The translations under genes and the position numbers were made by a program. From the NCBI GenBank assembly GCA_037916615.1, contig JBAIXM010000051.1:10228-74227 (forward strand): a DNA stretch of 64,000 nucleotides, read 5' to 3'. The notes beneath the pieces are model-generated. The model had not been told where the DNA came from and did no database searches. It saw nothing but the letters and a program-made list of their open reading frames with translations. Below, piece after piece: positions 17,068 to 32,864 of this stretch. The DNA comes from Bryobacterales bacterium (GTDB taxonomy: Bacteria; Acidobacteriota; Terriglobia; Bryobacterales; Bryobacteraceae). Numbering within the stretch: the stretch's first letter is position 1; every line of letters begins with the position of its first letter.

Positions 17068-19266
17068 TCACTGCTTGCGCGGCTCCGAAACGGCCCCTGA
17101 GAGCTCGAGAGCTCGCGCTCTGACGCCGCGCAGATCGATCTTGCCGGTTCCCAGCACGGGTAGCTCCTGCACTTGATGAATGTTTTCGAGCTTGGGCAGC
17201 CACAACTTGGGCAGATCGGTATCGGATAAGCGCCGCCAGAGATCCTCGGGTGTGAGGTCTGCGTGCGTGTAGAGGACGGCGAGTTTTTCGCCCTTGCGCT
17301 CGTCGGGAAGGCCCGTCACTGCGCAGGGGGCGTCGCCGCAGGTTTTCGCGATGAGCTCTTCGACCAGCAGATGCGGGACCATTTCGCCTCCAACCTTGCT
17401 GAATCGCGCAATGCGATCGGTGATCGAGAGAAACCCGTCTTCGTCCACTCTGGCCATGTCGCCCGTGATGTACCAGCCTTCGTGGAAAACCTGGGCAGTG
17501 CGTTCCGGATCTTTGAGGTAGCCGCGCATCCGGTTCGGGCCTTTCACCAGCAGCAGTCCTGCTTCTCCGGGCGGAAGCGGCTGCTTCGTTTCCGGGTCCA
17601 CGATGCGTACCGACACACCGGGAATCGGAAGCCCCACGGTTCCATGCTTTGCGCCGATCTGGATTTCCTTGCCCTGGCGATAATCCGGCGTGTTCACTGC
17701 CACAACCGGCGACATCTCCGTCATGCCGTAGCCTTCCAGCAGATCGATGCCGAATGTCTGCTCGAACTCCTTGCGCAGGGGTTCGCGGAGCTTTTCGGCG
17801 CCCACCACCACGAAACGCAGCGATGCGAATTGCTCGCGGGTGCACTTGCGCATGTAGGTTCCGCAAAAAGTCGGCGTCGATAGAAGGAACGTGCCTTTGT
17901 ATTTGTGGATCAGCTCGCCGATGGTTTTCGCGTCGGTCGGATTGGGGTGGTACACGACGCCGCCGCCGGTAAACAGCGGGAGCCAGATGGTCGCCATGAA
18001 TCCGAACGAATGAAAGAACGGCAGGACCCCGATGATCCGGTCGCGCTCGTCGAGCGCAAAGAGCTGCAGCACCGCATCCACGTTGGTCGCGATGTTGAAA
18101 TGCGACAACATGATGCCCTTGGGAACTCCGGTGCTGCCGCTGGTGAAGAGTACAGTAGCCAGGTCGTTGGGATCGCCGGTGGGAACAAGCCATCGCGCCG
18201 GAAGCAGTTTGGCTTTGATCAGGGCCCGCAGTTTTGCCGCTTTGCCGAGCGAAGCCAGGATGTCCTCTAAGTAAACGGAGCCCTTCGGGGCCTCAAGTTT
18301 CGCTCTTGTCAAGAAGGCCTTGGACGTGATCACCGTCCGGATTTCACACTGCTCGGCCGCGTAGGCCATCGCTTCCGCGCCGCCGGTAAAATTCAGGTTC
18401 ACCGGAACCTTGCCCGCGAGCGACACGCCCAGGTTCGCCAGCGCTCCGCCGACGGTCGCGGGAAGCAGCAGGCCAATCATCTTTTCGGAGTCCGCCCTTC
18501 GGCGGACCTCTTCCGCGAGCAGCAAAGCCGCAGTAAGTGCGCGGCCGTAGGTCAGCTCACGGCCCATGGAATCCGCCATGGCGAAGTATCCCCAATGACG
18601 GCGGGCCAGCCGAACGAACCGGGCCGGTAACGTTGCGCCGGGCTCGCGCGTAAGTCCGGCGGCATCGCTGCCCAGTTCTTCCACGACCTGGCGCGCGGCG
18701 AGCGCGGTCACGGGCGCGGGCAGGGGCGGGCCGAACGACACCGTGACCCGGTAGGGCCAGGATCGCGAATTTTTCCCGAAAAACTGTCCACCGGCGAAGC
18801 TGAAGGGGCTGCCCCAGACTCGATCCAGGTGAACCGGAATCACCGGAACGTCCAATCCTTCGATCACCTTTTCCATGCCGCGCCTGAACGGCAGCATGTT
18901 TCCGGTGCGGGTCACTGCGCCTTCCGGGAAGATGCAGACGACGTGCCCGGCCTCCAGTTCCCGGCGCGCCGACTGGATGGCGGCGGTCATCGCCCGAGGG
19001 CCCGAAAGGTCGATCGGAATCGTGCGCAGAGCGCGCAATAGCGGCCGCAGGGCCCAGTGCTCGTAATACGGCCGCCAAATCATGAACCGGACGTGCCGGT
19101 GCCGCGCGGCCCATCCGACAAGAAAGCCGTCCATGAACGAAACGTGGTTGGAGGCCAGCAGCGCGCCGCCTTTCTGTGGAACGTTTTCGGCCCCGACGAT
19201 CCGAACGCGATAGAACAGCGCGATCAGGCAGCGGACGCCGAGACGCACCAGAAACAGCGGGATCAC
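17068..19266 (-). CDS. bifunctional lysophospholipid acyltransferase / acyl-ACP (AMP-forming) synthetase, Aas-like
   Basis: N-terminal PlsC HX4D motif NHVSFMD. C-terminal adenylation motifs TSGSTGVPKG, GYGMTE, GWYITGD. Confidence 0.88.
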   Translation of the reverse strand: MIPLFLVRLGVRCLIALFYRVRIVGAENVPQKGGALLASNHVSFMDGFLVGWAARHRHVRFMIWRPYYEHWALRPLLRALRTIPIDLSGPRAMTAAIQSARRELEAGHVVCIFPEGAVTRTGNMLPFRRGMEKVIEGLDVPVIPVHLDRVWGSPFSFAGGQFFGKNSRSWPYRVTVSFGPPLPAPVTALAARQVVEELGSDAAGLTREPGATLPARFVRLARRHWGYFAMADSMGRELTYGRALTAALLLAEEVRRRADSEKMIGLLLPATVGGALANLGVSLAGKVPVNLNFTGGAEAMAYAAEQCEIRTVITSKAFLTRAKLEAPKGSVYLEDILASLGKAAKLRALIKAKLLPARWLVPTGDPNDLATVLFTSGSTGVPKGIMLSHFNIATNVDAVLQLFALDERDRIIGVLPFFHSFGFMATIWLPLFTGGGVVYHPNPTDAKTIGELIHKYKGTFLLSTPTFCGTYMRKCTREQFASLRFVVVGAEKLREPLRKEFEQTFGIDLLEGYGMTEMSPVVAVNTPDYRQGKEIQIGAKHGTVGLPIPGVSVRIVDPETKQPLPPGEAGLLLVKGPNRMRGYLKDPERTAQVFHEGWYITGDMARVDEDGFLSITDRIARFSKVGGEMVPHLLVEELIAKTCGDAPCAVTGLPDERKGEKLAVLYTHADLTPEDLWRRLSDTDLPKLWLPKLENIHQVQELPVLGTGKIDLRGVRARALELSGAVSEPRKQ

Positions 19267-19400
19267 ACGAATAGTGTAAGCCGGGAGATGGCGAGTGTTG
19301 AACCACTGAATGTTGAACGGGGCACACGCGCCAGCTTATCCTCTAGAAAGTGGACATTGCTCGCACGAGCGGTTCGCGCGCAGAGGGGAAAGAGGAAAAC

Positions 19401-20285
19401 GTGAAACTGACTGGCAGAACCTGCCCGCTGGCGGTGTGTCTGGCAATGTGTGCGGGTTGGAGTTCGAGCGTATCGGCGCAGCAGGCCCCCGCAGCGCAGC
19501 CGGCCGGCGCCCCACAGGCTCCGGCGCAACAGACTTCCGCCCAACAGGCTCCGGCACAGCCGCAGGAGCCCGAAAATCTAGACCGGATGCTTTCGATCTC
19601 GCTGTATGATTGGCTTCCGTACGGAGGGCCGTTCCTGCGCGGCGGAGCGAAAGCCGTCGTTCCCCCGTCCCATGATCTGAAGCTGCCCAAGCGACCCTCG
19701 CGCGCTTACGCGGCTCTGGTCACCATGCCCATGAAGGGAAACACGCGTCTGGAAGTGTCTTATCTGACGCTTGGCGATTCGGGCCATGGGACGGCTCCAA
19801 CCGATCTGGGCGCCTTCGGAGGGACGATTTCGCAGGGCGAACCGCTCTTTCTGAAGTACAGTCTTCGGCAATTGAAAGTCAGCTGGAATTACCTGACCTA
19901 TCCGAATCCGCCGCAGGATTCCAAGTTTCGCATCAAGACGCTTTGGGAGCTCCACTGGTTCCAGCTGAAGCCTTCGGTGACGCTGACGGTGACCGCTCCC
20001 GATCAGCCGCTGACGGAGAGCCAAAGGATCATCATGCCCGCGGTGGGCATGGGTTTTGAGTACGTGCCCTCCCATCACTTCCGCATTGAGGGGCGTGGAT
20101 CGGGGATGGGCATCCCAAGCCACCCGGCCGTGGGAGACGCTGACGTCACAATTGTCGGGCGCATTCGCAAGGTGGAAATTTTCGGCGGCGGCAAGGCATT
20201 GTACTTCCGGACCTCGCCGCAGAAAGAGACGTTCATCAAAGGCTTCCTGTGGGGACCGTACGCAGGGCTGCGGTGGGTGTTCTAG
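19401..20285 (+). CDS. hypothetical outer-membrane beta-barrel-like protein with Q/A/P-rich linker
   Basis: GTG 19401 preceded by GAAAGAGGAAAA. Signal peptide CPLAVCLAMCAGWSSSVSAQ and low-complexity region QQAPAAQPAGAPQAPAQQTSAQQAPAQPQEP. Alternating beta pattern and terminal ...GLRWVF aromatic residue typical of OMPs. Confidence 0.6.
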   Translation: MKLTGRTCPLAVCLAMCAGWSSSVSAQQAPAAQPAGAPQAPAQQTSAQQAPAQPQEPENLDRMLSISLYDWLPYGGPFLRGGAKAVVPPSHDLKLPKRPSRAYAALVTMPMKGNTRLEVSYLTLGDSGHGTAPTDLGAFGGTISQGEPLFLKYSLRQLKVSWNYLTYPNPPQDSKFRIKTLWELHWFQLKPSVTLTVTAPDQPLTESQRIIMPAVGMGFEYVPSHHFRIEGRGSGMGIPSHPAVGDADVTIVGRIRKVEIFGGGKALYFRTSPQKETFIKGFLWGPYAGLRWVF

Positions 20286-21118
20286 ATCGAGCACCGCGCG
20301 AGGATCCAGAGCTTTTCCCACGTAGGCACGCGCACCCGCGTTGCCAGCACCTGGTAGCCGGAGTTTGAGATGCGCTCCAGCAGCCGCGAATAGATTTGAA
20401 TCAGAGCCTTGAGAGACGCGCGGCTGTGCTTGTCGACCATCCGGACCAGCGGCTCGGACTGCCGGTAGAAATCGCGCGCGCGGTCGGCTTCGAAGCGCAG
20501 CAAATCCCGTAGCGGACGGGACAGGACTTCTCCGGAGAGTTCGCGTTCGCTGACGCCGAAGCGCTTCAGATCCTCGGCGGGCAGATAGACACGGCCATTC
20601 TCCGCGTCTTCGCGCACGTCCCTCAGAATGTTGGTGAGCTGAAAGGCGACGCCGCATTTCTCGGCGAGTTGCAACGCGGCGGGATCCTTGAACCCGAAGA
20701 CGTGAATGATCGTGAGGCCCACGACGCTGGCGACGTGGTAGCAGTAATCGTAAAGATCGTCAAACGTCTGGATGTGTCTCGGTTCCAGATCCGACCGCAC
20801 GCCCCGGATCATGTCGCGGAAATACTGGTGAGGGATGCGGTAGCGCGCGACGGCATCGGAAAAAGCGGGCCATAAAGGATGCGCGGGATGGCTGCCCGCC
20901 AGCGCGGTTTCCAGGTCGGCTTCCCAGCGCGCAATGGCGGCAGGACGGTCGATAACCCCCTCAGCGTCGCTCAGGTCGTCGCAATAGCGCATGAACGCGT
21001 ATATCGCGCACATGGCCTGCCTCTGGGGACGCGAGAGCAGAAGGAACGAATAGTAGAAGTTCTTGGCCTGCGTTCGCGCGACTCGTTCGCAGAAGGAGTA
21101 CGACTGCTCGAGCGTCAT
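20282..21118 (-). CDS. hpnD: presqualene diphosphate synthase (squalene/phytoene synthase family)
   Basis: Real start ATG 21118 (MTLEQSYSFCERVARTQAKNFYYSF...). Asp-rich motif YAFMRYCDDLSD and a second DxxxD region ILRDVREDAENGRVYLP. The 229-codon upstream extension is Arg/Gly/Pro junk. Confidence 0.85.
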   Translation of the reverse strand: MTLEQSYSFCERVARTQAKNFYYSFLLLSRPQRQAMCAIYAFMRYCDDLSDAEGVIDRPAAIARWEADLETALAGSHPAHPLWPAFSDAVARYRIPHQYFRDMIRGVRSDLEPRHIQTFDDLYDYCYHVASVVGLTIIHVFGFKDPAALQLAEKCGVAFQLTNILRDVREDAENGRVYLPAEDLKRFGVSERELSGEVLSRPLRDLLRFEADRARDFYRQSEPLVRMVDKHSRASLKALIQIYSRLLERISNSGYQVLATRVRVPTWEKLWILARCSI

Positions 21119-21138: not shown

Positions 21139-22068
21139 TCAGGCAGCCCTGGAAAACGCCCGCCGCCCGATCGCGCCCAAAAGCAGCCCCACTCGTTCCA
21201 ATTTGGAGATCGCCGGCCTGGAAGTCAGAACATCGCAACCCTGCTGCTCGATCTTCTCCAGAACCCGCAGGCCGCCGCGGCTGAACAGTTCGAGATCGAT
21301 GGCCAGGCGGCGGTCGACCGAGTCGGCCAGGGGCAGGCCGCGGAGAAAAAGCTCGCGCGCGACATTCACGGCCTCCTGCATGGCCGCGCGGAATCTTTGA
21401 TCGAACTGGCGGGCAAACAGGGCCTCGATCGGATACCCGTGCGCTTCCAGCAAATCCAACGGCAGGTACACCCGGTCCTTTGCCAGGTCGACCGTGACAT
21501 CCTGCCAGAAATTGGCAAGCTGGAGGGCGGTGCAGGTGGCGTCGGATAGCGCCTGTCTCTCGGCATCGCGATATCCACAAAGCCCGAGCACCAGCCGGCC
21601 CACGGGATTGGCGGAATACCGGCAGTACTCGAACAGCTCCTCGAAATTGCGGTAGCGCGTGACGGTCTGATCCTGCTCGAAAGCCCGGATTAAATCGTCG
21701 AACGGCTGAACCGGCAGCGAAAATTCGCGAACCGTCCCCTCCAGAGCCACGAAAACGGGATGCTGCGCCTGGCCCGCGCACATCGCCTGGAGCTGGTTCC
21801 GCCACCAGCCAAGCAAACGAAGGCTCTCAGCCGTGTTGCCGACTTCGTCGCCCAGGTCGTCGGCCCAGCGGCAGAATGCGTAGATGTTATAGAAGTCCTG
21901 GTGCAGCCGCTTGGGAAGCAGCACGCTCACCACATGAAAGTTCTCGTAGTGATGGGTCGCCAGCCAGCGGGTATAACCGCGGGCCTCATCCGGCGACCAG
22001 CTCCGCTCCATGGCGCTGCGCGAGGCGAGAAACTGAATCGGGTATAAAAATGTGTCGGGAAAAGACAC
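21139..22068 (-). CDS. hpnC: hydroxysqualene synthase (squalene synthase HpnC)
   Basis: HYENFHVVSVLLP, YAFCRWADDLGDE, NFWQDVTVDLAKDRVYLP. Lies directly upstream of hpnD with a 20-nt gap. Confidence 0.85.
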   Translation of the reverse strand: MSFPDTFLYPIQFLASRSAMERSWSPDEARGYTRWLATHHYENFHVVSVLLPKRLHQDFYNIYAFCRWADDLGDEVGNTAESLRLLGWWRNQLQAMCAGQAQHPVFVALEGTVREFSLPVQPFDDLIRAFEQDQTVTRYRNFEELFEYCRYSANPVGRLVLGLCGYRDAERQALSDATCTALQLANFWQDVTVDLAKDRVYLPLDLLEAHGYPIEALFARQFDQRFRAAMQEAVNVARELFLRGLPLADSVDRRLAIDLELFSRGGLRVLEKIEQQGCDVLTSRPAISKLERVGLLLGAIGRRAFSRAA

Positions 22069-22084: not shown

Positions 22085-23137
22085 CTACGGGATGATCGCG
22101 GTCTTGAGGTGGCCGTTGTGGCTCATCAGGTGCTGCATGACTTCGAGCAGATTCGATAGCGGCTCCACGCGGTTCACGAAATCGCGCGCGGTGACGCGTC
22201 CGCGGCTGATGATCTCCAGCGCCTGGCGAATCAGGGCGGGCGTGTGATGGAAGCTGGCTTTGAGCGTTAGTTCCGAGTAGTGAAGCCGTCCGGTATCGAC
22301 CGGGACTTCGGTCCCATCGGGGCAGCCGCCGAAAAAATTGACCACGCCTCCGCGGCGCAGCAAGCGCGTTGCGAGTTGCCAGACCTCAGGAAGCCCCACG
22401 GCTTCGATGACAACGTCTGCGCCCCGGCCGCCGGTCAGATTTTGTACGGGGCTGACCACGTCGGAACCTTCCTCGTTCAAAACCACCTCATCGGCGCCCA
22501 TTCCCGCGGCACGATCCAGCTGCGAGCGCCGCCGCCCGATGGCGATGACGCGCGCTTCGTACACCGCTTTGGCGAGGCGAACGAACATCATGCCGATCGG
22601 TCCGAGTCCGATGACCGCAATGGTGTCGCCGGGCCGCACGCCGGTTTCTTCCAGCCCGCGCATCACGCAAGCCAGGGGTTCCACCAGCGCCGCATCCTGG
22701 TAACTGACGTGGGGCGGAATTTCATGCATGTTCCGGGAAACGATCCGTTCCGGAATGCGAATGAATTCGGCATAGGCTCCGTTGTTAAACAGCAGATCTT
22801 CGCACAGGTTTTCCTGGTCGCGCTGGCAATAGAAACAGGCCCCGCACGGAGCGGAATTAGCGGCCACCACACGCTGGCCGACGCGGAATCGAGTGACATC
22901 GCTGCCAACGGCGGCCACATCGCCCGCCAGTTCGTGCCCGAAAAGCGCCGGCGGACGGATCATTTTGGCGTGGTAGCCGCGCCGGAACACCTTGACGTCG
23001 GTTCCGCACGTCAGCGCGGCCCGAACGCGTACCAGTACGTCCCCGCGGCCCAGTTTGGGAACTTCCACCCGCTCGATGCGCAACTGCTCCCTGCCGTAGA
23101 GCACAGCCGCGCTCATCTGTTGCGTGTCTGGAGTCAT
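22085..23137 (-). CDS. Zn-dependent medium-chain dehydrogenase/reductase (sorbitol/threonine dehydrogenase-like)
   Basis: Catalytic Zn ligands TCGTDVK and GHE. Structural Zn cluster CGACFYCQRDQENLC. Rossmann GLGPIGM. The ATG overlaps the stop of the upstream ADH (ATGA). Confidence 0.88.
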   Translation of the reverse strand: MTPDTQQMSAAVLYGREQLRIERVEVPKLGRGDVLVRVRAALTCGTDVKVFRRGYHAKMIRPPALFGHELAGDVAAVGSDVTRFRVGQRVVAANSAPCGACFYCQRDQENLCEDLLFNNGAYAEFIRIPERIVSRNMHEIPPHVSYQDAALVEPLACVMRGLEETGVRPGDTIAVIGLGPIGMMFVRLAKAVYEARVIAIGRRRSQLDRAAGMGADEVVLNEEGSDVVSPVQNLTGGRGADVVIEAVGLPEVWQLATRLLRRGGVVNFFGGCPDGTEVPVDTGRLHYSELTLKASFHHTPALIRQALEIISRGRVTARDFVNRVEPLSNLLEVMQHLMSHNGHLKTAIIP

Positions 23138-24183
23138 CTTTGTGGCTGGACCACTATCTTTAACGATACCTCATCCGGGTGCAGAGCGCGTTCAATCCCG
23201 CGATGAATGTCGTTTAATGACACGCGGTGCGTGACTAGTTCCTGGACCGGAAATTGTCCAGAAAAAACCAGATCGGCCGATTCCCTTTGAACATCCACCG
23301 ATGCGCTGTAGGAGCCGAAAATCGTGCGTTCCCCCACGCACACGTCCGCTCCGGATACTTCGATGCGTTCCTGATGCGATGTTTGCGCAAAGAGAAGAAT
23401 TCGCGCGCCCGGGCGCGAGCACGCCACGGCTTGTTGCACGATGCCGGGCGCGGAAGCGGCCACGATTACCAGGTCGGCGCCGCGCCCCGCCGTCATCCCT
23501 TTCACGCGAGCTTCGAATTTCTCATCGCGCGGATCCAATGCGTCCTGCACGCCCAGGCTCAGCGCGAGCCCCCGCCGGCTGGTCATCGTATCCGTGACAA
23601 TCACGCGAGCGCCGCTGCGCACCGCCATCATCGTGAAGATCAGGCCGATGGGACCTTGGCCGAGGATCGCAATCACGTCCTCGGGCTGCGGATCGAGTTG
23701 CTTGAATCCCTTCAGGCAGGTGTTCACAGGTTCCACGAAACAGGCCTGGTCGAAGCTGATCCCTTTTGGAATAATCTCCACGCCGCGCTCGACGATCCAG
23801 TCCATCACACGCACGTATTGCGCGAAGCCGCCGCCGGCGGGTTCGAATCCCGCGGTCACGCCCACTTTTTTGTACACCGGACACTGCGCGTACAATTTCC
23901 GCAGGCAATAAAAGCACTTGCCGCACGGAATATGGTGAAACACAACCACTCGATCGCCGGGCTGAAAGCGCTTTACGCCCGTGCCTACGGCGGCGACGAT
24001 CCCCGCCGTCTCATGCCCGTAGATGCGCGGGGGGTCGAACAAATCATAGGCGATCTTCTTCAGGTCCGTATGGCAGATCCCGCAGGACTCCACTTGTATC
24101 AGGATTTCCCCAGGTCCAATCTCGGGTACGGGAATCGTTTCCACTTCCACGCGACGTTCCCCGCGGTAGACCGCCGCTCGCAT
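23134..24183 (-). CDS. Zn-dependent medium-chain dehydrogenase/reductase (second, divergent copy)
   Basis: CGICHTD, GHE, CGKCFYCLRKLYAQC, GQGPIGL. Start chosen at ATG 24183 (MRAAVYRG...). Alternatives are ATG 24204, GTG 24258 and TTG 24267; the last two overlap the hpnG stop. Confidence 0.85.
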   Translation of the reverse strand: MRAAVYRGERRVEVETIPVPEIGPGEILIQVESCGICHTDLKKIAYDLFDPPRIYGHETAGIVAAVGTGVKRFQPGDRVVVFHHIPCGKCFYCLRKLYAQCPVYKKVGVTAGFEPAGGGFAQYVRVMDWIVERGVEIIPKGISFDQACFVEPVNTCLKGFKQLDPQPEDVIAILGQGPIGLIFTMMAVRSGARVIVTDTMTSRRGLALSLGVQDALDPRDEKFEARVKGMTAGRGADLVIVAASAPGIVQQAVACSRPGARILLFAQTSHQERIEVSGADVCVGERTIFGSYSASVDVQRESADLVFSGQFPVQELVTHRVSLNDIHRGIERALHPDEVSLKIVVQPQR

Positions 24184-24247
24184 CGTTGCCGCCGGATGCG
24201 GCATTCGAACCGGATCCGGAACTGTGGCGATCGAGCCTGCCGGACTG

Positions 24248-24907
24248 CTAGTTTTCACAGTTTGCAAAGAACTCTCCTAGTCGTTCTGAGGCCTGCCGGC
24301 ACTGCCGGTCCAGCCGCATCAGGCCCGGCAGCACAGTAAATGGACGCGCCAGAGCCGCCAAAGCGATGCGCGCCTTTTTGAAGCGTCCGTCCACGTCGCG
24401 ATATCGATTGAAATCCAACGGAAGATCCTCTCCCGCGGCATCGGACACCACGCGGACACAGCCGAACGGCAGATTCCACTCGCGCGCCTTTTGGGCGACT
24501 GCCGCCGACTCCATTTCGACCACCGCTGCCCCTGTGGCCGCTCGCAATTCACGCTTTTCCCGGGCGGTGACCGCTACCCGATCAACCGATGCCACGTCCC
24601 CCTGCACACAGCGTCCGAACGCCTTGGGAACTTCACCCGATATGACGATATCACCAATTTCAAGCGCGGGGTCAAGGGCCCCGCAGAACCCGACGCTCAG
24701 GATCCCGTCCACTTCCGGTTTCCGCCCCAAGGCGCGTTCCACAAGCCTGGGACCGGGCCCATTGGCGATCAACAACCAGCGGTTCTTTTCCCGCGCAGTC
24801 ACGCGCGAAAACGCTGCGCCGGGCCACGGCAATGCCCGGACCTCGCCTGCCTGTTTGAGGATTCCGTCGAACTCGCGGGCCTCCGCGGCCACCATCAGCC
24901 AGGTCAT
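24248..24907 (-). CDS. hpnG: hopanoid-associated phosphorylase/nucleosidase (adenosylhopane nucleosidase)
   Basis: Start ATG 24907 (MTWLMVAAEAREF...). PNP/UDP phosphorylase-like core SVGFCGALDP and VVEMESAAVA. Sits between hpnA and the ADH pair. The 120-codon upstream extension was rejected. Confidence 0.8.
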   Translation of the reverse strand: MTWLMVAAEAREFDGILKQAGEVRALPWPGAAFSRVTAREKNRWLLIANGPGPRLVERALGRKPEVDGILSVGFCGALDPALEIGDIVISGEVPKAFGRCVQGDVASVDRVAVTAREKRELRAATGAAVVEMESAAVAQKAREWNLPFGCVRVVSDAAGEDLPLDFNRYRDVDGRFKKARIALAALARPFTVLPGLMRLDRQCRQASERLGEFFANCEN

Positions 24908-24912
24908 TCGCT

Positions 24913-25893
24913 TCAGCAGTATCCGTTCTCCCGGAACCACGAGACGGCGCGCCGCAACGCCTCGCTTGCCGGACCCGGCGCATATCCCAAGTCGCGGGCG
25001 GCCTTGTCGTGCCGCACCCACATCTTCTTGCGCGACATGCGGACCGCATCCAGAGGCGCCCGGGGCTCGCGTCCCGTCACACCGGCCCAGGCCGTCGAAG
25101 CGACTCCGGCGGCGTAGGCCACGGCGTAGGGAATCTGCATGCGGGGCGGCTTGCGCTCCAGAATGCCGGCCAGCGTTTCTAGAATCTGCTGGAGCGTCAT
25201 GTTTTCCGCGCCGAGAATATAGCGCTCGCCTGGCCTGCCGCGTTCGCAGGCGGCCAGATGCGCACACGCCACGTCGCGAACATCCACCACGTTGAGACCG
25301 GTGTCGACGAAAGCGGGAATCGCCCCGCGGGCGAAATCGACCACGATTTTTCCCGTCGGCGTCGGTTTAAAGTCGTGATCTCCAACCGGCGCGGTGGGGT
25401 TCACGATGATCACCGGGAAGCCGCTTTCCGCAAATTCGCGGGCCACCTGCTCGGCCATAAATTTGGAGCGCTTGTACGGGCCCTGCATGTCACTCAGAAA
25501 CGCCTCGCTACGCTCGTCTCCAATGCCGTCCGGAGTGTTTACGCCGATGCAGCCCACGGTGCTCGTGTAGACGAAGCGTTCCACGCCCGCGCGCCGGGCG
25601 GCCTCGAGCATGGCTCGAGTTCCATCGACGTTGGAGCGATACATTTCCTGGGGTTCGCGGGTCCACAGCCGGTAATCGGCGGCGACGTGGAAAACAACGC
25701 CGCAGCCCTGAACGGCGCGCGCCAGCGAATCGGGATCGCGCAGGTCTCCTTGGACCGGCTGGGCGCCGGTTAACTCGCGCAGCTTTGCGGGATCGCGCGC
25801 CAGGGCCCGGACCGAGCGCCCGCGTTCCAGCAGCGCCCGCGCCACGTGCCAGCCTACGAATCCGGTGGCTCCGGTGACCAGCGTGGGCTTCAC
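24913..25893 (-). CDS. hpnA: hopanoid-associated sugar epimerase (NAD-dependent epimerase/dehydratase family)
   Basis: VTGATGFVGWHV Rossmann motif, FHVAADYRLW, and PYKRSKFMAE (YxxxK). Confidence 0.85.
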   Translation of the reverse strand: MKPTLVTGATGFVGWHVARALLERGRSVRALARDPAKLRELTGAQPVQGDLRDPDSLARAVQGCGVVFHVAADYRLWTREPQEMYRSNVDGTRAMLEAARRAGVERFVYTSTVGCIGVNTPDGIGDERSEAFLSDMQGPYKRSKFMAEQVAREFAESGFPVIIVNPTAPVGDHDFKPTPTGKIVVDFARGAIPAFVDTGLNVVDVRDVACAHLAACERGRPGERYILGAENMTLQQILETLAGILERKPPRMQIPYAVAYAAGVASTAWAGVTGREPRAPLDAVRMSRKKMWVRHDKAARDLGYAPGPASEALRRAVSWFRENGYC

Positions 25894-25901
25894 AGCAAGA
25901 T

Positions 25902-27017
25902 TTAGCCCAGCAGCCAGCTCAGCGTTTTGAAGGGATCGCTGAACTTCGCGTTAATCCCGTAGGCCGAGGACGGCTCATAGCCGCAGTGCACCATGCACTG
26001 GTCGCAGCGCGGATCGTTGCCGGAGCCGTAGTTTTCCCAAGGCGTCTTGGTCATGAGATCTTCGAACGTCTCATGATGCGCGTCGGTGATCAGGTAGCAC
26101 GGGCCTTTCCAGCCCTTCACGTTGTAAGTCGGGTTGCCCCAGGCGGTGCAGGGCAGTTCGCGATCGCCCTTTAAAAAATCCATGTAGACGGGCGAGGAAA
26201 CCAGCGGGAAGCGCTTGGCAATCTTGTCAATGTCCTTGAACTTCTCATGCACGTCTTCGCGCGTCATGAAAATTTCCTGGTCGTTCACCGAAGAGTAGCC
26301 GTAGGCCGGCGAAATGGTGTGCCCGTCGACCTTGAACTGTTCCAGGAACTCGTAGAGCTCCCAGATTTCACGCATGTCGGTTTCGCGATAGACGGTCGTA
26401 TTGGTGAACACGCGGAAGCCGTTTTGCTTCGCGATCCGGATGCCTTCGATGGCTGCCTTGAACACGCCCTCGCGCTCCACGGCCAGATCGTGATTCTTCT
26501 CCATGCCGTCCAGGTGGACGTTCAAAACCAGTCCGGGATCCGGAGTGAACTCTTTCAGCCGCTTGGCGATGAACATGCCGTTGGTGCAGAGCTGGATATA
26601 GCGGCCGCGTTTCAGAATTTCCGAGCAGAGCTGCGGCAGTTCCGGATAGAGGAACGGCTCGCCTCCGCAGATCGAAACCATGGGAGCTCCGCATTCGTCT
26701 ACGGCGCGCAGGCACTGTTCCAGCGTGAGCCGCGAACTGATGGAAGTTTCGTATTCCCGGATCCGGCCGCACCCGGTACAGGTGAGGTTGCAGGCGTGCA
26801 GCGGCTCGAGCATCATCACCAGCGGAAAACGCTTGTTGATCAGCGGATGCGGTTTGCGCTCGGCGCGCGCCGAGGGGATCTGCGCGTGAATGATGCGGAA
26901 CGGGTTCTTCGCGTCCTCGACGGAGCCCAGGTTTCTCTGCCACTCCGGACGCGGGCGGAGCTTGTTTTTGGCGATGTAGGTCGCCATGCTGGCCGCCTGG
27001 GAAATCGGGAATCTCAT
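25902..27017 (-). CDS. hpnH: adenosylhopane synthase (radical SAM)
   Basis: KRFPLVMMLEPLHACNLTCTGCG (Cx3Cx2C) closely resembles the HpnH N-terminus. Its ATG shares one base with the shc stop (TGATG). Confidence 0.9.
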   Translation of the reverse strand: MRFPISQAASMATYIAKNKLRPRPEWQRNLGSVEDAKNPFRIIHAQIPSARAERKPHPLINKRFPLVMMLEPLHACNLTCTGCGRIREYETSISSRLTLEQCLRAVDECGAPMVSICGGEPFLYPELPQLCSEILKRGRYIQLCTNGMFIAKRLKEFTPDPGLVLNVHLDGMEKNHDLAVEREGVFKAAIEGIRIAKQNGFRVFTNTTVYRETDMREIWELYEFLEQFKVDGHTISPAYGYSSVNDQEIFMTREDVHEKFKDIDKIAKRFPLVSSPVYMDFLKGDRELPCTAWGNPTYNVKGWKGPCYLITDAHHETFEDLMTKTPWENYGSGNDPRCDQCMVHCGYEPSSAYGINAKFSDPFKTLSWLLG

Positions 27018-28942
27018 CAGTGGGTTGCTCCTCTTGCTTTCCGGTAGGCTGCCAGCGCCAGAACCGGAAAAGAAATTCGATAGAGATGATACTGCAAGTA
27101 GAAAACGCGCGGGAATCCGGTGCCTGTGGACAGGTCCTCATCCCAGCCGCCATCGGAGCGCTGGGTTCCCGCCAGGTATTCGATGCCTTTGTGCAGGCTG
27201 TTGCTGGTGGTATCGCCGCTGGCGATCAATCCCAGCACGGCCCAGGCCGTCTGGGACGGAGTGCTGTGCGCGGCGGTGTACGTTCCATTGTCATAGCTGG
27301 CGCAGCTTTCGCCCCAGCCGCCATCGGCGTTCTGGATCGAGCGCAGCCATTCGCCCGCGCGCAGGATGTAGGCTTCCCGGTCGCTTTCGCCCGAGGCCTG
27401 CAATCCGCGCAGCGCCAGGTACGTGCCGTAGATGTAATCGACGCCCCAGCGTCCGTACCAGCTTCCGTCCTCTTCCTGGACGCGCTTGAGGAACGCCACG
27501 CCGCGCTGCACCGCTTCGTGGCTATTGGAAACGCCGCATCGGGCAAGCGCTTCCAGCACGCGGCCGGTGATATCCGGACACGTGGGATCGAGCATGGCAT
27601 TGTGATCGGCGAACGGGACGCAGCTCAGGAAATTCCAGTTATTGTCGACGTCGAATGCCGCCCAACCTCCGTCCGAGCCCTGCATCGCGAGCAGCCAGTC
27701 CACGGCACGCTTGCGGGCGGCCTGCTGCGCGTCCGAATCGGAAGCCTGGGAGTGGGCAAGAGCCAGCAGCACCTGGGCGGTATCGTCGATATCGGGATAC
27801 CATTCGTTGGCGAATTCGAAATACCAGCCGGATGGCTCGATATTGGGGCGCTTGACGCTCCAGTCACCCTTCTTGCGGACTTCCTTGGAAAGCAGCCAGT
27901 CGGCGGCAGGCATGAGCGCTCGCTCGGGCACGACTCCGGATTCGCCCAGAACATGGACGGCGATAGCCGTGTCCCAAACCGGCGAGAAACACGGTTGGAA
28001 GAAAAACCCGCGATGGTCGTCAATCATCAGGCTCATGAACTGGCGCGTGGCTTCCCGCACGTCCGGATGATCCTCGGGATACCCCAGGACGTCGAGCGCC
28101 ATGATCACGTACATCATCGAGGGATAAATCGCACCCAGGCCGTCGGAGCAATGCGTGCGGTCGAGCATCCATTGCTCGGCGCGCTGGATGGCGCGCTTCC
28201 GCAGGCCGCGGGAGCCATGTCGTTCCCAGAATTTGAGAAACCGGTCGGCGACGAAGAAGAACGTTCGCCAGCTCAGGAATCTCTCAGGCTTGGCGAAGGC
28301 CATCGAAACGCCCGGCACGAACAGCTCTTCGAGCGTGAACCCGGCAGGCACGGGACGCTGCGGGTTCATCGAGTGCAGGATCGAAAGGGGCGTCACAATC
28401 GCCCGCGTCCAGGAGGACATCTCGTAGATGAGATTCCCCGCCAGGCTCAATTCAGGCGGAATCGAGGGCGTCTGCTCGCGCGGATACAGGCCGAACAGGC
28501 TGAGATTGATCTTGACGTAGCTGTTGGCGGCTTGCAGCCCGCCGAGCGCGAGGATGCGCTCCCTCAGGCGGCTCAACTGCGACCCGGCCGGATCGACTCC
28601 CGCCAGCTTCAGCGCCGTATAAGCCTTGATGCTGGCACTGACTTCCGACGGGCCCTTTTCGTAAATGCTGAAGCCGCCGTCGGGCAACTGGCGCGCCAGG
28701 ATCGATCGCACTGCTTTGTCGATCAGAGGCCGGGTGGGCGGGTTCCATGCGCCGTTCTGGGGAGGATGCCGCCACAGCTCCAGCAGAATGAAATCGGATT
28801 CCAGCGTTGTGTCGGCGGTCAGCTCGCCGCACCAGTATCCCTGACCGGCTCGCCGGCTCAGCAGGTAGTCAGACGCCCTGCGCAGAGTGGCGGAGGATTC
28901 CGCCAACAGAGTGTCCGCAATTTGCAGACTGGGGCTGCTCAT
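27017..28942 (-). CDS. shc: squalene-hopene cyclase
   Basis: Start ATG 28942 (MSSPSLQIADTLL...). DxDDTA catalytic motif (WYPDIDDTAQ). Multiple QW repeats (QGSDGGWAAF, QEEDGSWYGRWG, QNADGGWGE, QRSDGGWDE). Overlaps the ispH stop (ATGA). Confidence 0.95.
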   Translation of the reverse strand: MSSPSLQIADTLLAESSATLRRASDYLLSRRAGQGYWCGELTADTTLESDFILLELWRHPPQNGAWNPPTRPLIDKAVRSILARQLPDGGFSIYEKGPSEVSASIKAYTALKLAGVDPAGSQLSRLRERILALGGLQAANSYVKINLSLFGLYPREQTPSIPPELSLAGNLIYEMSSWTRAIVTPLSILHSMNPQRPVPAGFTLEELFVPGVSMAFAKPERFLSWRTFFFVADRFLKFWERHGSRGLRKRAIQRAEQWMLDRTHCSDGLGAIYPSMMYVIMALDVLGYPEDHPDVREATRQFMSLMIDDHRGFFFQPCFSPVWDTAIAVHVLGESGVVPERALMPAADWLLSKEVRKKGDWSVKRPNIEPSGWYFEFANEWYPDIDDTAQVLLALAHSQASDSDAQQAARKRAVDWLLAMQGSDGGWAAFDVDNNWNFLSCVPFADHNAMLDPTCPDITGRVLEALARCGVSNSHEAVQRGVAFLKRVQEEDGSWYGRWGVDYIYGTYLALRGLQASGESDREAYILRAGEWLRSIQNADGGWGESCASYDNGTYTAAHSTPSQTAWAVLGLIASGDTTSNSLHKGIEYLAGTQRSDGGWDEDLSTGTGFPRVFYLQYHLYRISFPVLALAAYRKARGATH

Positions 28943-29919
28943 ACCCGCGCAACGGTTTGTAATTGCACCGTGCGCGTCAGCTCGGATGGCAAGTTGAAGC
29001 GCACGTCCTCTTCCTTGACTTCCATTTCTTCCAGTTGCGCGAAGCCTCGCTGCTGGAGGAACTCGACCAATTGCTGCACCAGGTTTTCCGGCGCGGATGC
29101 GCCCGCCGTCACCGCGACCGTCCGGACGTTTTCCAGCCATTGTTGCTGGACTTCCGTCAGATCGTCGACCAGATAGGCGGGGACGCCCATCTTCTCGCAA
29201 ACTTCCACCAGACGGCGCGAATTCGAGCTGTTTTGTGAACCCACAACCAGCAGCACTTCACATAGAGGGACCACGGCTTTCACCGCGACTTGCCGGTTTT
29301 CCGTGGCGTAGCAGATATCCTGCGCCGCCGGCCCCTGAATCTTGGGGAACTTATGCTTGAGCCGCTCCACGATATCCCGGGTTTCATCCAGGCTCAGCGT
29401 GGTCTGCGTGATAAAGGAAACGCGCTCCGGGTCGGCGACCTCCAGCCGATCGACATCTTCCACCGTGGAAACCAGGGCGGTCGCTTGCGGCGCTTCCCCG
29501 AGCGTTCCGATCACCTCGTCGTGATCCTTGTGGCCGATCAGGACGATGGTGAATCCCTTCTTCGCGAACTTGACGGCTTCCAGGTGGACCTTGGTCACCA
29601 GGGGGCAGGTCGCGTCGATGACCTTGAGGCTCCGCTGTCGTGCCTGCGTGCGCACTTCCGGCGAGACTCCATGAGCGCTGAAAATCACGCGAGCGCCCAC
29701 TGGAACTTCGTCCAGCTCCTCGACAAAGATCGCACCAAGAGCCCGAAGCTCCTCGACGACGTGGCGGTTATGAACGATTTCCTTGCGCACGTAGATCGGC
29801 GCTCCGTACATATCGAGCGCGATCTTCACCACGTCGATTGCGCGTACGACTCCCGCGCAGAAACCTCGTGGCCGCAACAAGATAATCTTCTTCCCCGCAG
29901 TCAAAGGGGTAGAGGACAT
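28939..29919 (-). CDS. ispH: 4-hydroxy-3-methylbut-2-enyl diphosphate reductase
   Basis: LytB-like sequence RPRGFCAGVVRAI...VHNRHVV...ATCPLVTKVH...SSNS. First gene of the hopanoid operon. Confidence 0.93.
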   Translation of the reverse strand: MSSTPLTAGKKIILLRPRGFCAGVVRAIDVVKIALDMYGAPIYVRKEIVHNRHVVEELRALGAIFVEELDEVPVGARVIFSAHGVSPEVRTQARQRSLKVIDATCPLVTKVHLEAVKFAKKGFTIVLIGHKDHDEVIGTLGEAPQATALVSTVEDVDRLEVADPERVSFITQTTLSLDETRDIVERLKHKFPKIQGPAAQDICYATENRQVAVKAVVPLCEVLLVVGSQNSSNSRRLVEVCEKMGVPAYLVDDLTEVQQQWLENVRTVAVTAGASAPENLVQQLVEFLQQRGFAQLEEMEVKEEDVRFNLPSELTRTVQLQTVARV

Positions 29920-29993: not shown

Positions 29994-30911
29994 TCAGTGA
30001 GTCGTATGAGAGGCGTGCGACGACTTGCCTAACTGATCGAGCGCAGCTTTGAACCCCGCAGCGAGTTTCTCAGTCGGGCCGGTTCCCCAATAGTGCAGGA
30101 AGTAGATCGTGGGCTGGCCGCTGGTCATGTGGTTATGAATCGCAACCACGTTCAGGCCGTTGGAACGCAGCGCTTTGAGTACGGGCGTGATCTCGCCGGA
30201 TAGCATGGCGACGTCGCCTGCGACCTCGGCGTTTGCATCGCTGCCATAAAAGGCGGCCCAGGTGTTCAGTCCCATGCGCGCGTTGATAGCGGCGCCCATG
30301 TCTTTGAGCTTCAGATCGTCGCGACCCACGGTGATTTTATAGACTGCGCCGCTCTGTTCCCCTTCGTGTCCTACGAGCTTGGCGATTTTGGCCGTGTCGA
30401 TCTGCCCGGCCGAAACATTCGATTTTGCACCGCTGACCGAGTCTTGATGTTGTGGCGACCCCTTGCCGATCAAATCCACCGCGGGTTTGACCATTTTGGC
30501 GAGATCCCCTGCTTTGCCGTGACCGTGCACGTGCATATAAAAGATTCGCGGACTTTCGAAGAAGAAATGATTGTGGAGAGCCGTGATCTCCAGGCCATTA
30601 TCGAGCAGCGCGGACATGACCGGGTTAACTTCGTCTTCGGTCAGCACCAGATCCCCCATCATCACATCCATGCCGCCATCACCCTTGGTCATTGCGAGCC
30701 AGCCTCCGAATCCAAACGGCGTGGGCGTGGCGATCCCGTCGATGGTGACCTTCAGATCGTTTCGCGGAATGTTGATTTTGAGAACGTTGTCTTTGTAATC
30801 CCCTTGTTTGCCCAAGGACTTGAGGACTAGGTCGTAGTCGGCGGGAACGGATTGGCCCGACGCAAAGCCGGCAAGCAAGAGGGTCGGAATGATCAGAAAT
30901 GCGGATTTCAT
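29994..30911 (-). CDS. secreted protein with two DUF1259 (LppY/LpqO-like) repeats
   Basis: Signal peptide MKSAFLIIPTLLLAGFASGQ. Internal duplication: ITALHNHFFFESPRIFYMHVHGHG and VVAIHNHMTSGQPTIYFLHYWGTG. The family name is from memory. Confidence 0.55.
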   Translation of the reverse strand: MKSAFLIIPTLLLAGFASGQSVPADYDLVLKSLGKQGDYKDNVLKINIPRNDLKVTIDGIATPTPFGFGGWLAMTKGDGGMDVMMGDLVLTEDEVNPVMSALLDNGLEITALHNHFFFESPRIFYMHVHGHGKAGDLAKMVKPAVDLIGKGSPQHQDSVSGAKSNVSAGQIDTAKIAKLVGHEGEQSGAVYKITVGRDDLKLKDMGAAINARMGLNTWAAFYGSDANAEVAGDVAMLSGEITPVLKALRSNGLNVVAIHNHMTSGQPTIYFLHYWGTGPTEKLAAGFKAALDQLGKSSHASHTTH

Positions 30912-30959
30912 AACAGACCTCCCCTGAATTGTAGATCCCGTTGCGTGTATAGTGTTGCT

Positions 30960-32864
30960 CTAGCCTAGAACGAAACCGCGAAGTTTCGCGGCATCAAGTA
31001 AATCCACGATCGCCGGATGGTGCATTTTTTCCGCCCACGCGCGCGGTTTGGCCCACGGTTCCGCGTCGGCCTCCACGGGATCGGCGCCACGCGCCAGGAA
31101 TAGCTTCACGATTTCGACACGCCCCCACCGGCAAGCCCACCCCAGCGGCGTGCTCATGAGCAGTTTGTCCCGGACATCGAGACGAGCCCCGGCGTCTAGC
31201 AGTATGGTGGCAAGCTGAAGACCCGGGCCTCGGTCCCCGGAGACGATCTCGTGCAGGATGGTCTGGCCATGGATGGGATCGCGGTGATGCGGGTGGGTAC
31301 GGGCCAGGATTAGCCGGAACGTGTCGCAGCATTCAGGGCGATCCGCATGATTCCACGTCGGCCGGCGCAGCATTCCGAACCACCTGCGATCATCGTGCGG
31401 CCAGTCGACACGTTCCAAGGCCATCCGAACGATGTCGTCGCAAAGCGAGCTGGCGCCGCCCCACAGAAGCTGCTCCGCCACGGTGTGGCCGGAGAAATCG
31501 TTCGGCTCCAGGTGAGGATCGATTTCGCCCGCGAGCATCTTGCGCGCGATTTCGGTCTGGCGCGCGTAGCCCGCGCCACCGGGGTCGATCCAGCCGCCAT
31601 GCTTTTCGATCAACGCTAGCATTTCGGGATTGCGGCCATCGTAGGCGCGGAATGCCGCCGAGCCCGCTGTAAACACGTTTGCATTGGGGTCCGCGCCACG
31701 CTCCAGCAACAGACGCGCCATCTCCAAACGGTTCAGCACCACGGCTTGAAACACAGGACCGCCGGAAGACCAGGTCTTCTCCTCCATGTGACCGACCTGG
31801 ATGGGCTCGTCCGGATCGAGGCCCAGGTCGAGCAGGCGGCGCAGTGTATCCGGCTGGTTGCCCTTAACGGCAGCCTCCAGCACGCCCTTGCCTTCCAGTT
31901 CCGGCTTGGAAAATTTCGCCAGATAATCCCACCGGCCGAGCGCGGCCGCGGAAATCTGGCTGAGCTCCGCGCCGTATTCGAGGAGGAGTTTCGCCGTGGG
32001 TTGGAACTTCTCGTTGTTAAAGAGCCACTCGTCGCTGCCGCGGCCGGTAGCGGCGAAATCGAGCGGCGTCCAGCCTTGCGGTGCTCTATCCAGAAACGTG
32101 GCGCTTTGGTGCGGGACGACATGTGCCCTCGCGTTGACATCCTTGCCATGCTCGATCAGCCATTTGACGATCAGCCGCTGCCCGCGCCCTGCCGCCAGAT
32201 GGAGCATCGTGGTGCCGTCGGCCATCCGCCACTCGGTGATCTCGGGGTGCTGCTCGAACACCGCTTCCATCGCCTCCTCGCGGCCTGTCATGTAGGCTTC
32301 TTGGATTTTGCGCCGGACTTCAGCGGGTACTTTGGAGCCGCTCATTCCGCGCTTCTCCAGAGCTGCGTTGATTGCGTCGGAGATTTCGTTGAACCCGCGA
32401 TCGCGCGCGATCACACGCGGGCTAGTGGCGTCCCGAATGGGCCAGACGCCTTCGTCGGCATTGGCTCCAAATTCGAGGAGCAGCTTGGTCATTTCGAGAT
32501 CGCGCCGCAGGACCGCCGTGTGAAGCGCGTGGACGCCGACAATCTCCGGGCGGCGAGTGAGGAGTTCGCGCGCCGTTTCGAGATCGCCGCTCTCAACGGC
32601 CTCGTGCAACCTGGTGGCGGTGACGCCGTCGACGGCGGCTTTTAGTTTCGGCCAGCTCTCGAAACCATAGGATCGCGCGAGCACGAACTGGGCGTCGTGC
32701 AATGCGAAATTTTCGGGCGAAGCGGTGCGGTGATACGCGTTCACCTCGGCGACGGCTTCAGGGGAGGATGCCCGATAAGCTTCGAGCAGTTCTTTGGCCT
32801 GGCGTTTCAGTTGGTCCAGGTCGGGATTCTCGCGCATTCGGCGAGTGGGCGGATGCTGGCTCAT
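30960..32864 (-). CDS. ankyrin-repeat protein
   Basis: 634 aa with repeated G.T.LH.A...G....V..LL..GAD.N-type motifs (LLEFGANADE, LLERGADPNA, LLDAGARLDV, FLARGADPVE). N-terminal helical DLDQLKRQAKELLEAYR module. Confidence 0.85.
   Translation of the reverse strand: MSQHPPTRRMRENPDLDQLKRQAKELLEAYRASSPEAVAEVNAYHRTASPENFALHDAQFVLARSYGFESWPKLKAAVDGVTATRLHEAVESGDLETARELLTRRPEIVGVHALHTAVLRRDLEMTKLLLEFGANADEGVWPIRDATSPRVIARDRGFNEISDAINAALEKRGMSGSKVPAEVRRKIQEAYMTGREEAMEAVFEQHPEITEWRMADGTTMLHLAAGRGQRLIVKWLIEHGKDVNARAHVVPHQSATFLDRAPQGWTPLDFAATGRGSDEWLFNNEKFQPTAKLLLEYGAELSQISAAALGRWDYLAKFSKPELEGKGVLEAAVKGNQPDTLRRLLDLGLDPDEPIQVGHMEEKTWSSGGPVFQAVVLNRLEMARLLLERGADPNANVFTAGSAAFRAYDGRNPEMLALIEKHGGWIDPGGAGYARQTEIARKMLAGEIDPHLEPNDFSGHTVAEQLLWGGASSLCDDIVRMALERVDWPHDDRRWFGMLRRPTWNHADRPECCDTFRLILARTHPHHRDPIHGQTILHEIVSGDRGPGLQLATILLDAGARLDVRDKLLMSTPLGWACRWGRVEIVKLFLARGADPVEADAEPWAKPRAWAEKMHHPAIVDLLDAAKLRGFVLG

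Follow-up and report, generated by a model that had tools for sequence, protein, structure and literature searches.

A conserved pair of zinc-dependent dehydrogenases encoded between hpnG and hpnC in Bryobacterales: gene context, distribution beyond hopanoid clusters and possible function

The DNA analysed here (the window) is a 64-kb stretch of contig JBAIXM010000051.1 from a Bryobacterales bacterium (assembly GCA_037916615.1, positions 10,228 to 74,227), whose sequence matches Bryobacteraceae (Acidobacteriota) sequences. It contains a hopanoid gene cluster in which two genes coding for Zn-dependent dehydrogenases of the medium-chain dehydrogenase/reductase (MDR) type are located, on the minus strand, between hpnG and hpnC. 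These genes, called here MDR-A and MDR-B (or simply A and B), are of the type of ug1 and ug2, respectively, two genes described in acidobacterial hopanoid clusters (Sinninghe Damsté et al. 2017, Front Microbiol 8:968; PMC5462960). MDR-B extends from 22085 to 23137 (350 aa) and MDR-A from 23134 to 24183 (349 aa, counted from the ATG at 24183). The mechanical open reading frame (ORF) of MDR-A, 23134-24267, begins with a TTG and holds an alternative ATG at 24204, but the alignments with its orthologues and with threonine dehydrogenase structures begin at the ATG at 24183. The MDR-A stop and the MDR-B start overlap in the tetranucleotide ATGA at 23137-23134. The original prediction for this DNA, which regarded both genes as candidates for the reductase that converts ribosylhopane into bacteriohopanetetrol (BHT), was thus right about the position, strand and integrity of the two ORFs, the motifs that it named, and their ATGA coupling.

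Both proteins possess the full set of catalytic zinc ligands, consisting of a Cys (in CxTD), a His and a Glu (in GHE), and the Glu of an EP motif. MDR-A shows the motifs SCGICHTD...GHE, CGKC-x2-C-x7-C for the structural zinc, FVEPVNTC and GQGPIG, and MDR-B shows TCGTDVK...GHE, CGAC-x2-C-x7-C, VEPLAC and GLGPIG. The C-x2-C-x2-C-x7-C zinc lobe, the EP(V/L) glutamate and GxGxxG are therefore common to both. The zinc ligands and the Rossmann motif are conserved in the orthologues of both MDRs, except for the A orthologue of one lineage (L092), which has lost the structural cysteines. The Pfam domains ADH_N and ADH_zinc_N are recognized in both proteins with 73-93 bits (cut-offs 23.5 and 31.8), and A and B are 31% identical to each other. 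Judged by these features, they are paralogous and catalytically complete Zn-MDR dehydrogenases of the threonine-/polyol-dehydrogenase branch.

A characterized orthologue was sought in Pfam, NCBIfam and the PDB sequences, and only generic MDR similarity, at roughly 30-35% identity, was found; there is no clear orthology to a characterized sugar-alcohol or threonine dehydrogenase in these collections. No NCBIfam equivalog cut-off is reached by MDR-A or MDR-B. The top curated family is IolM (NF041097), with 179 and 160 bits versus a cut-off of 450; the L-threonine 3-dehydrogenase families TIGR00692 and NF003808 give 157 and 153 bits (versus 458) and 153 and 150 bits (versus 380), respectively, so that neither protein qualifies as a member of any of them. 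The closest PDB relatives are all weak (119-148 bits) and comprise the unannotated dehydrogenase 4ej6, archaeal threonine dehydrogenases, a Thermus alcohol dehydrogenase and 1e3j.

The cluster around the pair is composed of nine genes, all of them on the minus strand, in the order ispH-shc-hpnH-hpnA-hpnG-A-B-hpnC-hpnD. It is headed by ispH (LytB; 28939..29919; Pfam LYTB, 318 bits), whose stop codon is overlapped by the ATG at 28942 of shc, the squalene-hopene cyclase gene (27017..28942; TIGR01507, 625 bits). These are followed by hpnH, coding for the radical-SAM adenosylhopane synthase (25902..27017; TIGR03470, 417 bits, above the cut-off of 225), and hpnA, coding for a hopanoid-associated short-chain dehydrogenase/reductase (SDR) named 'sugar epimerase' (24913..25893; TIGR03466, 463 bits, above 368). 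The hpnG-like phosphorylase/nucleosidase gene (24248..24907, ATG at 24907; Pfam PNP_UDP_1) has TIGR03468 HpnG as its top NCBIfam model, with 134 bits, below the cut-off of 187, and lies 43-64 nt upstream of MDR-A. Downstream of MDR-B, at 16-73 nt, is hpnC (21139..22068; TIGR03464, 353 bits, above 250), and the final gene is hpnD (20282..21118, ATG at 21118), for which the top NCBIfam model, TIGR03465, gives 268 bits, slightly below the cut-off of 279. Because the nine genes share one strand and are separated by overlaps or by gaps of at most 73 nt, they look like a single operon, within which MDR-A and MDR-B appear to be co-transcribed. Promoter and terminator scans of the operon were uninformative, revealing no promoter-like sites and only chance-level terminator-like matches. 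No hpnE was found anywhere in the 64-kb window, nor in the flanks of the pair in Bryobacterales.

A scan with MDR-A of one genome per GTDB species yielded 575 relatives, of which the best 80, with 66-86% identity, were kept. All contigs among these best 80 but three bear Bryobacterales, Terriglobia or Acidobacteriota labels, and the three odd-labelled ones ('Rhizomicrobium', 'Bordetella' and 'Verrucomicrobiia') are probably mis-binned. For instance, the 'Rhizomicrobium' contig is a 2.8-kb fragment with Bryobacterales gene order, for which reason its label was rejected as a sign of spread to Alphaproteobacteria. As judged by tblastn with the window proteins, the order ispH-shc-(hpnH)-hpnA-hpnG-A-B-hpnC-hpnD is present in every sufficiently long locus of the 80 species. 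Within Bryobacterales, conservation of the MDR pair equals that of the core hopanoid enzymes, with median identities of 72% for A and 75% for B, 68% for Shc, 71% for HpnC and 48% for HpnG. In roughly a quarter of these species (L001-L080) hpnH is absent between shc and hpnA, which means that in those genomes it is located elsewhere or has been lost.

Outside Bryobacterales, a search of all 50%-identity cluster representatives indicated a narrow A subfamily: below about 12 full-length representatives (37-50% identity, 267-368 bits) come generic MDRs. An Armatimonadota metagenome-assembled genome (MAG) carries, in this order, a threonine-aldolase-like gene, A, B, an 89-aa ORF, hpnC, hpnD and hpnE, without hpnG; its HpnE scores 374 bits (cut-off 283). 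In the low-GC contig L093, A-B-hpnC-hpnD form a tight operon, their stops and starts overlapping, and a convergent hpnH fragment is also present; locus L094 has the order hpnA-hpnG-A-B. Four further lineages have the A-B pair alone, and one cyanobacterial contig has A alone.

Metagenomes were scanned using an alignment of the non-Bryobacterales A proteins as query, and the resulting loci were examined by tblastn. Three groups emerged. The first one comprises about 20 loci resembling those of acidobacterial subdivision 1 (SD1-like), with the order shc-hpnH-hpnA-hpnG-A-B-hpnC-hpnD-hpnE, in which the A start overlaps the hpnG stop. The second one (L143, L145 and L154) shows the order ispH-hpnA-A-B-hpnD-shc, with an HpnD of 288 bits (cut-off 279), and lacks adjacent hpnC, hpnE, hpnG or hpnH; in these three loci the lysine-pathway genes asd, aspartokinase, dapB and dapA, named by eye from their translations, come after the cluster. 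The third one consists of 43 loci, 59-66% identical to the representative P0243, in which the pair has no hpn gene in its flanks, these being 10 kb on each side in five of the 43 loci. Its members are labelled by NCBI as Vicinamibacteria (MAG labels as deposited), a class that corresponds to subdivision 6 (SD6) of the Acidobacteriota.

Altogether, hopanoid linkage is very strong and extends to about 30 other acidobacterial metagenome loci, the Armatimonadota MAG and one further lineage (L093), so that the pair is found together with hopanoid genes in Bryobacterales, the SD1-like loci, the ispH-hpnA-A-B-hpnD-shc clade, Armatimonadota and L093. The pair itself occurs in at least eight lineages, including three hopanoid-cluster-linked clades of Acidobacteriota, Vicinamibacteria, Armatimonadota and several further groups. 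In at least five of them (Vicinamibacteria, the L138 group, L089, L090 and L092) it stands alone, several of these contexts being on short contigs. Of the 172 loci with a full-length A, 153 have B directly after it (median gap 17 nt). The order is always A then B, and the two genes form an old and self-contained module. Outside the Bryobacterales and SD1-like loci its constant neighbours are hpnC/hpnD, plus hpnA in one clade, and not hpnG. A-B lies directly upstream of hpnC/hpnD, with gaps of about 18 nt, even in lineages whose A is only about 40-45% identical, including another phylum, and at such divergence this linkage is hard to call an accident. The original prediction had proposed to look for co-localization with hpnG and hpnH in other hopanoid producers: a hopanoid linkage does exist far beyond this genome, but in the loci examined adjacency to hpnG is limited to those of the Bryobacterales/SD1-like type and L094.

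The Vicinamibacteria bear on the relation of the pair to C35 hopanoids. In SD6, the cultured genome that was examined and ten environmental genomes contain hpnC, hpnD and hpnE and are devoid of shc, hpnH and hpnG, and two cultured species make no hopanoids (PMC5462960). Contigs labelled Vicinamibacteria nevertheless frequently carry the pair, without hpn genes in its vicinity, and its occurrence is therefore probably not confined to hopanoid-producing genomes. The 80%-consensus sequences of Bryobacterales, the SD1-like group, the third hopanoid-linked clade and Vicinamibacteria were compared, and they give no sign of drift of the pair in Vicinamibacteria. In A, a single position separates all the hopanoid-linked acidobacterial clades from Vicinamibacteria, with 93 conserved positions in common; in B, four conservative positions (V/L, Q/R, V/L and I/L) separate the same clades, with 100 in common. 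The catalytic-zinc loops are identical across the four groups in both A, TD(L/V)KK...PRI(F/Y)GHE, and B, TCGTD(V/L)KV(F/Y)RRGYHARM, and the neighbour-joining ordering places the Vicinamibacteria clade between the hopanoid-linked ones. The simplest reading of these sequence comparisons would be that of one orthologous function independent of C35 hopanoid synthesis. Nor is the pair generally present in BHT producers: ug2 is absent from the BHT-producing Chloracidobacterium thermophilum (PMC5462960), and in the literature no such MDR gene is found near alphaproteobacterial hpn clusters. Co-occurrence with hpnH and hpnG is likewise incomplete, several loci holding the pair without these genes nearby.

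Two further contexts of the pair, or of A-type proteins, deserve mention in their own right. In Vicinamibacteria (L083, L096-L132 and L175) a queF gene is found near the pair, usually accompanied by a proline dehydrogenase gene, and L090 has a queE. A queuosine link was dropped as probable chance, because an opposite-strand gene can intervene: in one Vicinamibacteria MAG contig (L175), queF-Pro_dh is followed by an opposite-strand regulator and then by A-B, and the queE of L090 belongs to a different operon. On the other hand, L176 carries at 841-2649 a gene for a 602-aa fusion protein (P0263) that joins an inositol-phosphate-cytidylyltransferase-like nucleotidyltransferase with a distant A-type MDR, 37% identical and provided with the subfamily motifs. 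This gene adjoins a CDP-alcohol phosphatidyltransferase gene and an asparagine-synthase-like gene. The fusion suggests that this lineage carries out polyol or polyol-phosphate chemistry, and the locus may represent a polyol-phosphate head-group pathway.

The two members of the pair differ in their predicted cofactor preference. A has an Asp or Glu at the end of beta-2 in every lineage (Asp in MDR-A of the window), aligned with the Glu of the archaeal threonine dehydrogenase 2dfv, which is presumably NAD-dependent. From this acidic residue, A would be NAD-type. B shows G-(R/K/N)-R after beta-2 in Acidobacteriota and Armatimonadota, and the G-R-R-R of MDR-B aligns with the A-R-S-P-R-R of the NADP-dependent ketose reductase 1e3j, so that B would be NADP-type in these two phyla. 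Ahead of the structural-zinc lobe there is a His-His in A, as in threonine dehydrogenase, and an Asn-Ser in B; both MDRs carry a Lys where most relatives have a His after CxTD, and B has a conserved basic loop. These polar residues by the zinc lobe, the Lys and the basic loop of B are easier to reconcile with a polar substrate, of the type of a polyol, a sugar or a hydroxy acid, than with a hydrocarbon like hydroxysqualene.

Taking all these data together, our preferred reading, which we hold tentatively and at somewhat less than an even chance, is that the pair corresponds to ug1/ug2 and constitutes an ancient two-enzyme redox module, with an NAD-type A and an NADP-type B, acting on a polar hydroxy/carbonyl substrate beyond the C35 hopanoid producers. 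Since an NAD-type and an NADP-type enzyme have been kept together across phyla, a two-step redox couple is the likeliest mode of action. A would oxidize a polar hydroxy/carbonyl centre with NAD+, B would reduce the same centre with NADPH, and the net outcome would be an epimerization or an aldose-polyol-ketose conversion. Because the pair is kept with the same loops in Vicinamibacteria, which reportedly produce squalene and lack hopanoids, and elsewhere travels with hpnC/hpnD and not with hpnG, its substrate would be something also present in squalene-only bacteria, and most likely not ribosylhopane.

Several points weigh against this redox-module reading. To our knowledge, the HpnC/HpnD/HpnE branch includes no polar hydroxylated intermediate that could account for the linkage to hpnC/hpnD. 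The linkage to hpnG is real in the Bryobacterales and SD1-like loci and is compatible with a side-chain role there. The NAD/NADP assignment follows a sequence rule, and the B proteins of L090 and L093 have an Asp or Glu at the NADP-signature site. Heteromer formation and sequential action of A and B are putative. Finally, the absence of shc and hpnG from the pair-bearing Vicinamibacteria MAGs is inferred from published genomes of the class.

The reading of the original prediction, in which BHT arises through NAD(P)H-dependent reduction of the open-chain ribosylhopane aldehyde by one MDR or both, draws on the fact that hpnG immediately precedes the pair in the window and in every Bryobacterales and SD1-like locus, and on the polar His-His (A) and Asn-Ser (B) ahead of the zinc lobe, as expected for polar substrates. 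It is also right in that this step has no assigned gene: papers of 2025-2026 call the enzyme unknown or the step 'non-enzymatic', and no later gene assignment was found in the literature. According to a paper citing Bodlenner 2015, the step is NADPH-dependent, which agrees with an NADP-type B. However, the pair is not beside hpnG in Armatimonadota, in L093 or in the ispH-hpnA-A-B-hpnD-shc clade, where hpnC/hpnD or hpnA, rather than hpnG/hpnH, are the neighbours; it is retained with the same catalytic loops in Vicinamibacteria, a class reported to be without hpnG, hpnH and shc; and a single reduction does not require two conserved enzymes. Together with the lack of ug2 in C. thermophilum and of the gene in alphaproteobacterial clusters, these contexts make a dedicated ribosylhopane reductase unlikely, and we regard this assignment as improbable. 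A broader version of it has a similarly small chance: the pair would handle 5-substituted riboses/ribitols in general, B as an NADPH-dependent reductase and A as an NAD-dependent dehydrogenase, acting from ribosylhopane to BHT in Terriglobia, possibly onward to a keto or epimeric form, and on another soluble or lipid analogue in Vicinamibacteria and other lineages. The Vicinamibacteria and the hpnG-independent contexts speak equally against a tailoring of the side chain, in which A and B would oxidize and re-reduce a hydroxyl of BHT or ribosylhopane to produce stereoisomers or keto intermediates and would not form BHT. Although the pairing of an NAD-type with an NADP-type enzyme suits an epimerization via a ketone, and the pair adjoins hpnA-hpnG, the acidobacterial survey ties no unusual BHT isomer to ug1/ug2 (PMC5462960), and the chance of such a role appears slim.

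The two remaining explanations place the pair outside the side-chain pathway. In one of them, A and B would serve housekeeping metabolism as dehydrogenases of polyols, cyclitols or amino alcohols, biochemically unconnected with hopanoids or squalene, and would owe their place in the cluster to inherited synteny. This would account for the lineages in which the pair stands alone among unrelated neighbours (queF, proline dehydrogenase and peptidase genes, for instance), for scyllo-inosose and threonine dehydrogenases being the top family similarities, and for the fusion of an A-type MDR to an inositol-phosphate-cytidylyltransferase-like domain beside a CDP-alcohol transferase. Adjacency without functional coupling, however, rarely outlasts the divergence at which A-B is still found upstream of hpnC/hpnD, and in Bryobacterales the pair, with 72-75% median identity, equals the core hopanoid enzymes in conservation (68% for Shc and 48% for HpnG); we therefore consider this explanation rather unlikely. 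It has also been proposed, by the original prediction as a secondary idea, that the pair is related to the missing hpnE step; in one such model the MDRs would substitute for HpnE in the conversion of hydroxysqualene into squalene. The failure to find hpnE in the window or in Bryobacterales flanks and the location of the pair directly upstream of hpnC-hpnD would suit this idea. It fails because pair and hpnE are not mutually exclusive: Armatimonadota have the pair and a bona fide hpnE together in a single operon, as do the SD1-like loci, and hpnE has been reported elsewhere in the genome in subdivision 3 (SD3; PMC5462960). The polar residues near the zinc are ill suited to a hydrocarbon substrate. 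We know, moreover, of no reductive dehydroxylation carried out by Zn-MDR enzymes. The replacement of HpnE was thus rejected, being extremely improbable.

Most extended hopanoids, as well as the geohopane fossil record, derive from BHT. What stands of the original prediction is a catalytically complete, coupled and hopanoid-linked pair; the specific reductase assignment is not supported. Kept in hopanoid/squalene operons across the Acidobacteriota, and also in an Armatimonadota MAG, this pair is a legitimate experimental target, while the comparative data redirect the question, as the pair tracks hpnC/hpnD and persists in the non-hopanoid Vicinamibacteria. It is more likely an uncharacterized redox module with a different role, possibly squalene- or polyol-related. 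If so, those searching for the reductase would be spared a likely false lead, and a narrow, well-defined and uncharacterized MDR subfamily is flagged for biochemistry. If, instead, the reading based on 5-substituted riboses/ribitols were true, the BHT-forming step would at last have a gene, at least in Acidobacteriota.

Other genes surrounding the cluster in the window can be summarized as follows. Convergent on hpnD is an ORF on the plus strand (19350-20285) without Pfam match, which combines an N-terminus resembling a signal peptide and a Gln/Ala/Pro-rich linker with a C-terminus (...GLRWVF) that has the ending typical of outer-membrane beta-barrels; it is kept beside hpnD in 15 related Bryobacterales loci, with 30-67% identity. 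The cluster is followed, in the window and in about nine Bryobacterales loci, by a gene (17068-19266, minus strand) for an Aas-like fusion of acyltransferase and acyl-ACP synthetase, which is PRK08633-like and matches only positions 410-1144 of that model. Directly upstream of ispH, on the minus strand (29994-32864), are the genes for a DUF1259 protein and an ankyrin-repeat protein of 634 aa. The window also holds a third MDR-like ORF (56153-57367, plus strand, 404 aa), a distant one, part of which aligns with MDR-A and MDR-B at 24-27% identity.

Among known systems, the L-threonine 3-dehydrogenase of Pyrococcus horikoshii (2dfv/2d8a; TIGR00692) shares with both MDRs the Zn-MDR fold, the CGTD and GHE motifs and the four-Cys zinc lobe, and with MDR-A also the His ahead of this lobe and the acidic residue after beta-2. 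However, the matches are weak (about 119-129 bits), its His after CxTD is replaced by Lys in the MDRs, and MDR-A contains a subfamily-specific insertion, YKKVGVTAGFEPAGGGF. The ketose reductase/sorbitol dehydrogenase group (1e3j, NADP(H)-dependent, and 1pl6) also belongs to the polyol-dehydrogenase branch, and MDR-B has the same NADP signature as 1e3j, a small residue plus Arg, but the similarity is weak (about 130 bits) and gives no sign of orthology. The scyllo-inosose 3-dehydrogenase IolM (NF041097) is the top-scoring curated family for both MDRs, although the scores are so far under its cut-off that they are not members, and there are no iol genes nearby. HpnA resembles the pair in being an NAD(P)-dependent oxidoreductase of the same operon and its conserved upstream neighbour, but it belongs to the extended SDR fold family. 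HpnA, and not ug1 or ug2, has been suggested as a possible ribosylhopane reductase; Burkholderia, however, reportedly makes BHT without it, and some BHT producers do not have it (PMC5462960).

The closest counterparts are ug1 and ug2 themselves. Three recurrent hopanoid gene clusters have been described in Acidobacteriota: in cluster C, hpnA-hpnG are followed by ug1, a 'Zn-dependent alcohol dehydrogenase, ca. 370 AA', and in cluster A, ug2, a 'Zn-binding alcohol dehydrogenase, ca. 350 AA', is followed by hpnC-hpnD-hpnE; the function of both was 'not established' (PMC5462960). MDR-A and MDR-B match them in position, size and annotation, a comparison made by description and not by sequence, so the association of the MDR pair with hopanoid clusters was already known. 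No published ribosylhopane reductase or characterization of ug1/ug2 was found in the literature, and it was apparently the original prediction that first connected these two genes with ribosylhopane reduction. While ug1 and ug2 were placed in two separate clusters and ug2 was reported missing in some SD3 environmental genomes (PMC5462960), here they form one translationally coupled pair that is present in all 80 Bryobacterales species. The occurrence of the pair in Vicinamibacteria and Armatimonadota is additional to the description of ug1/ug2.

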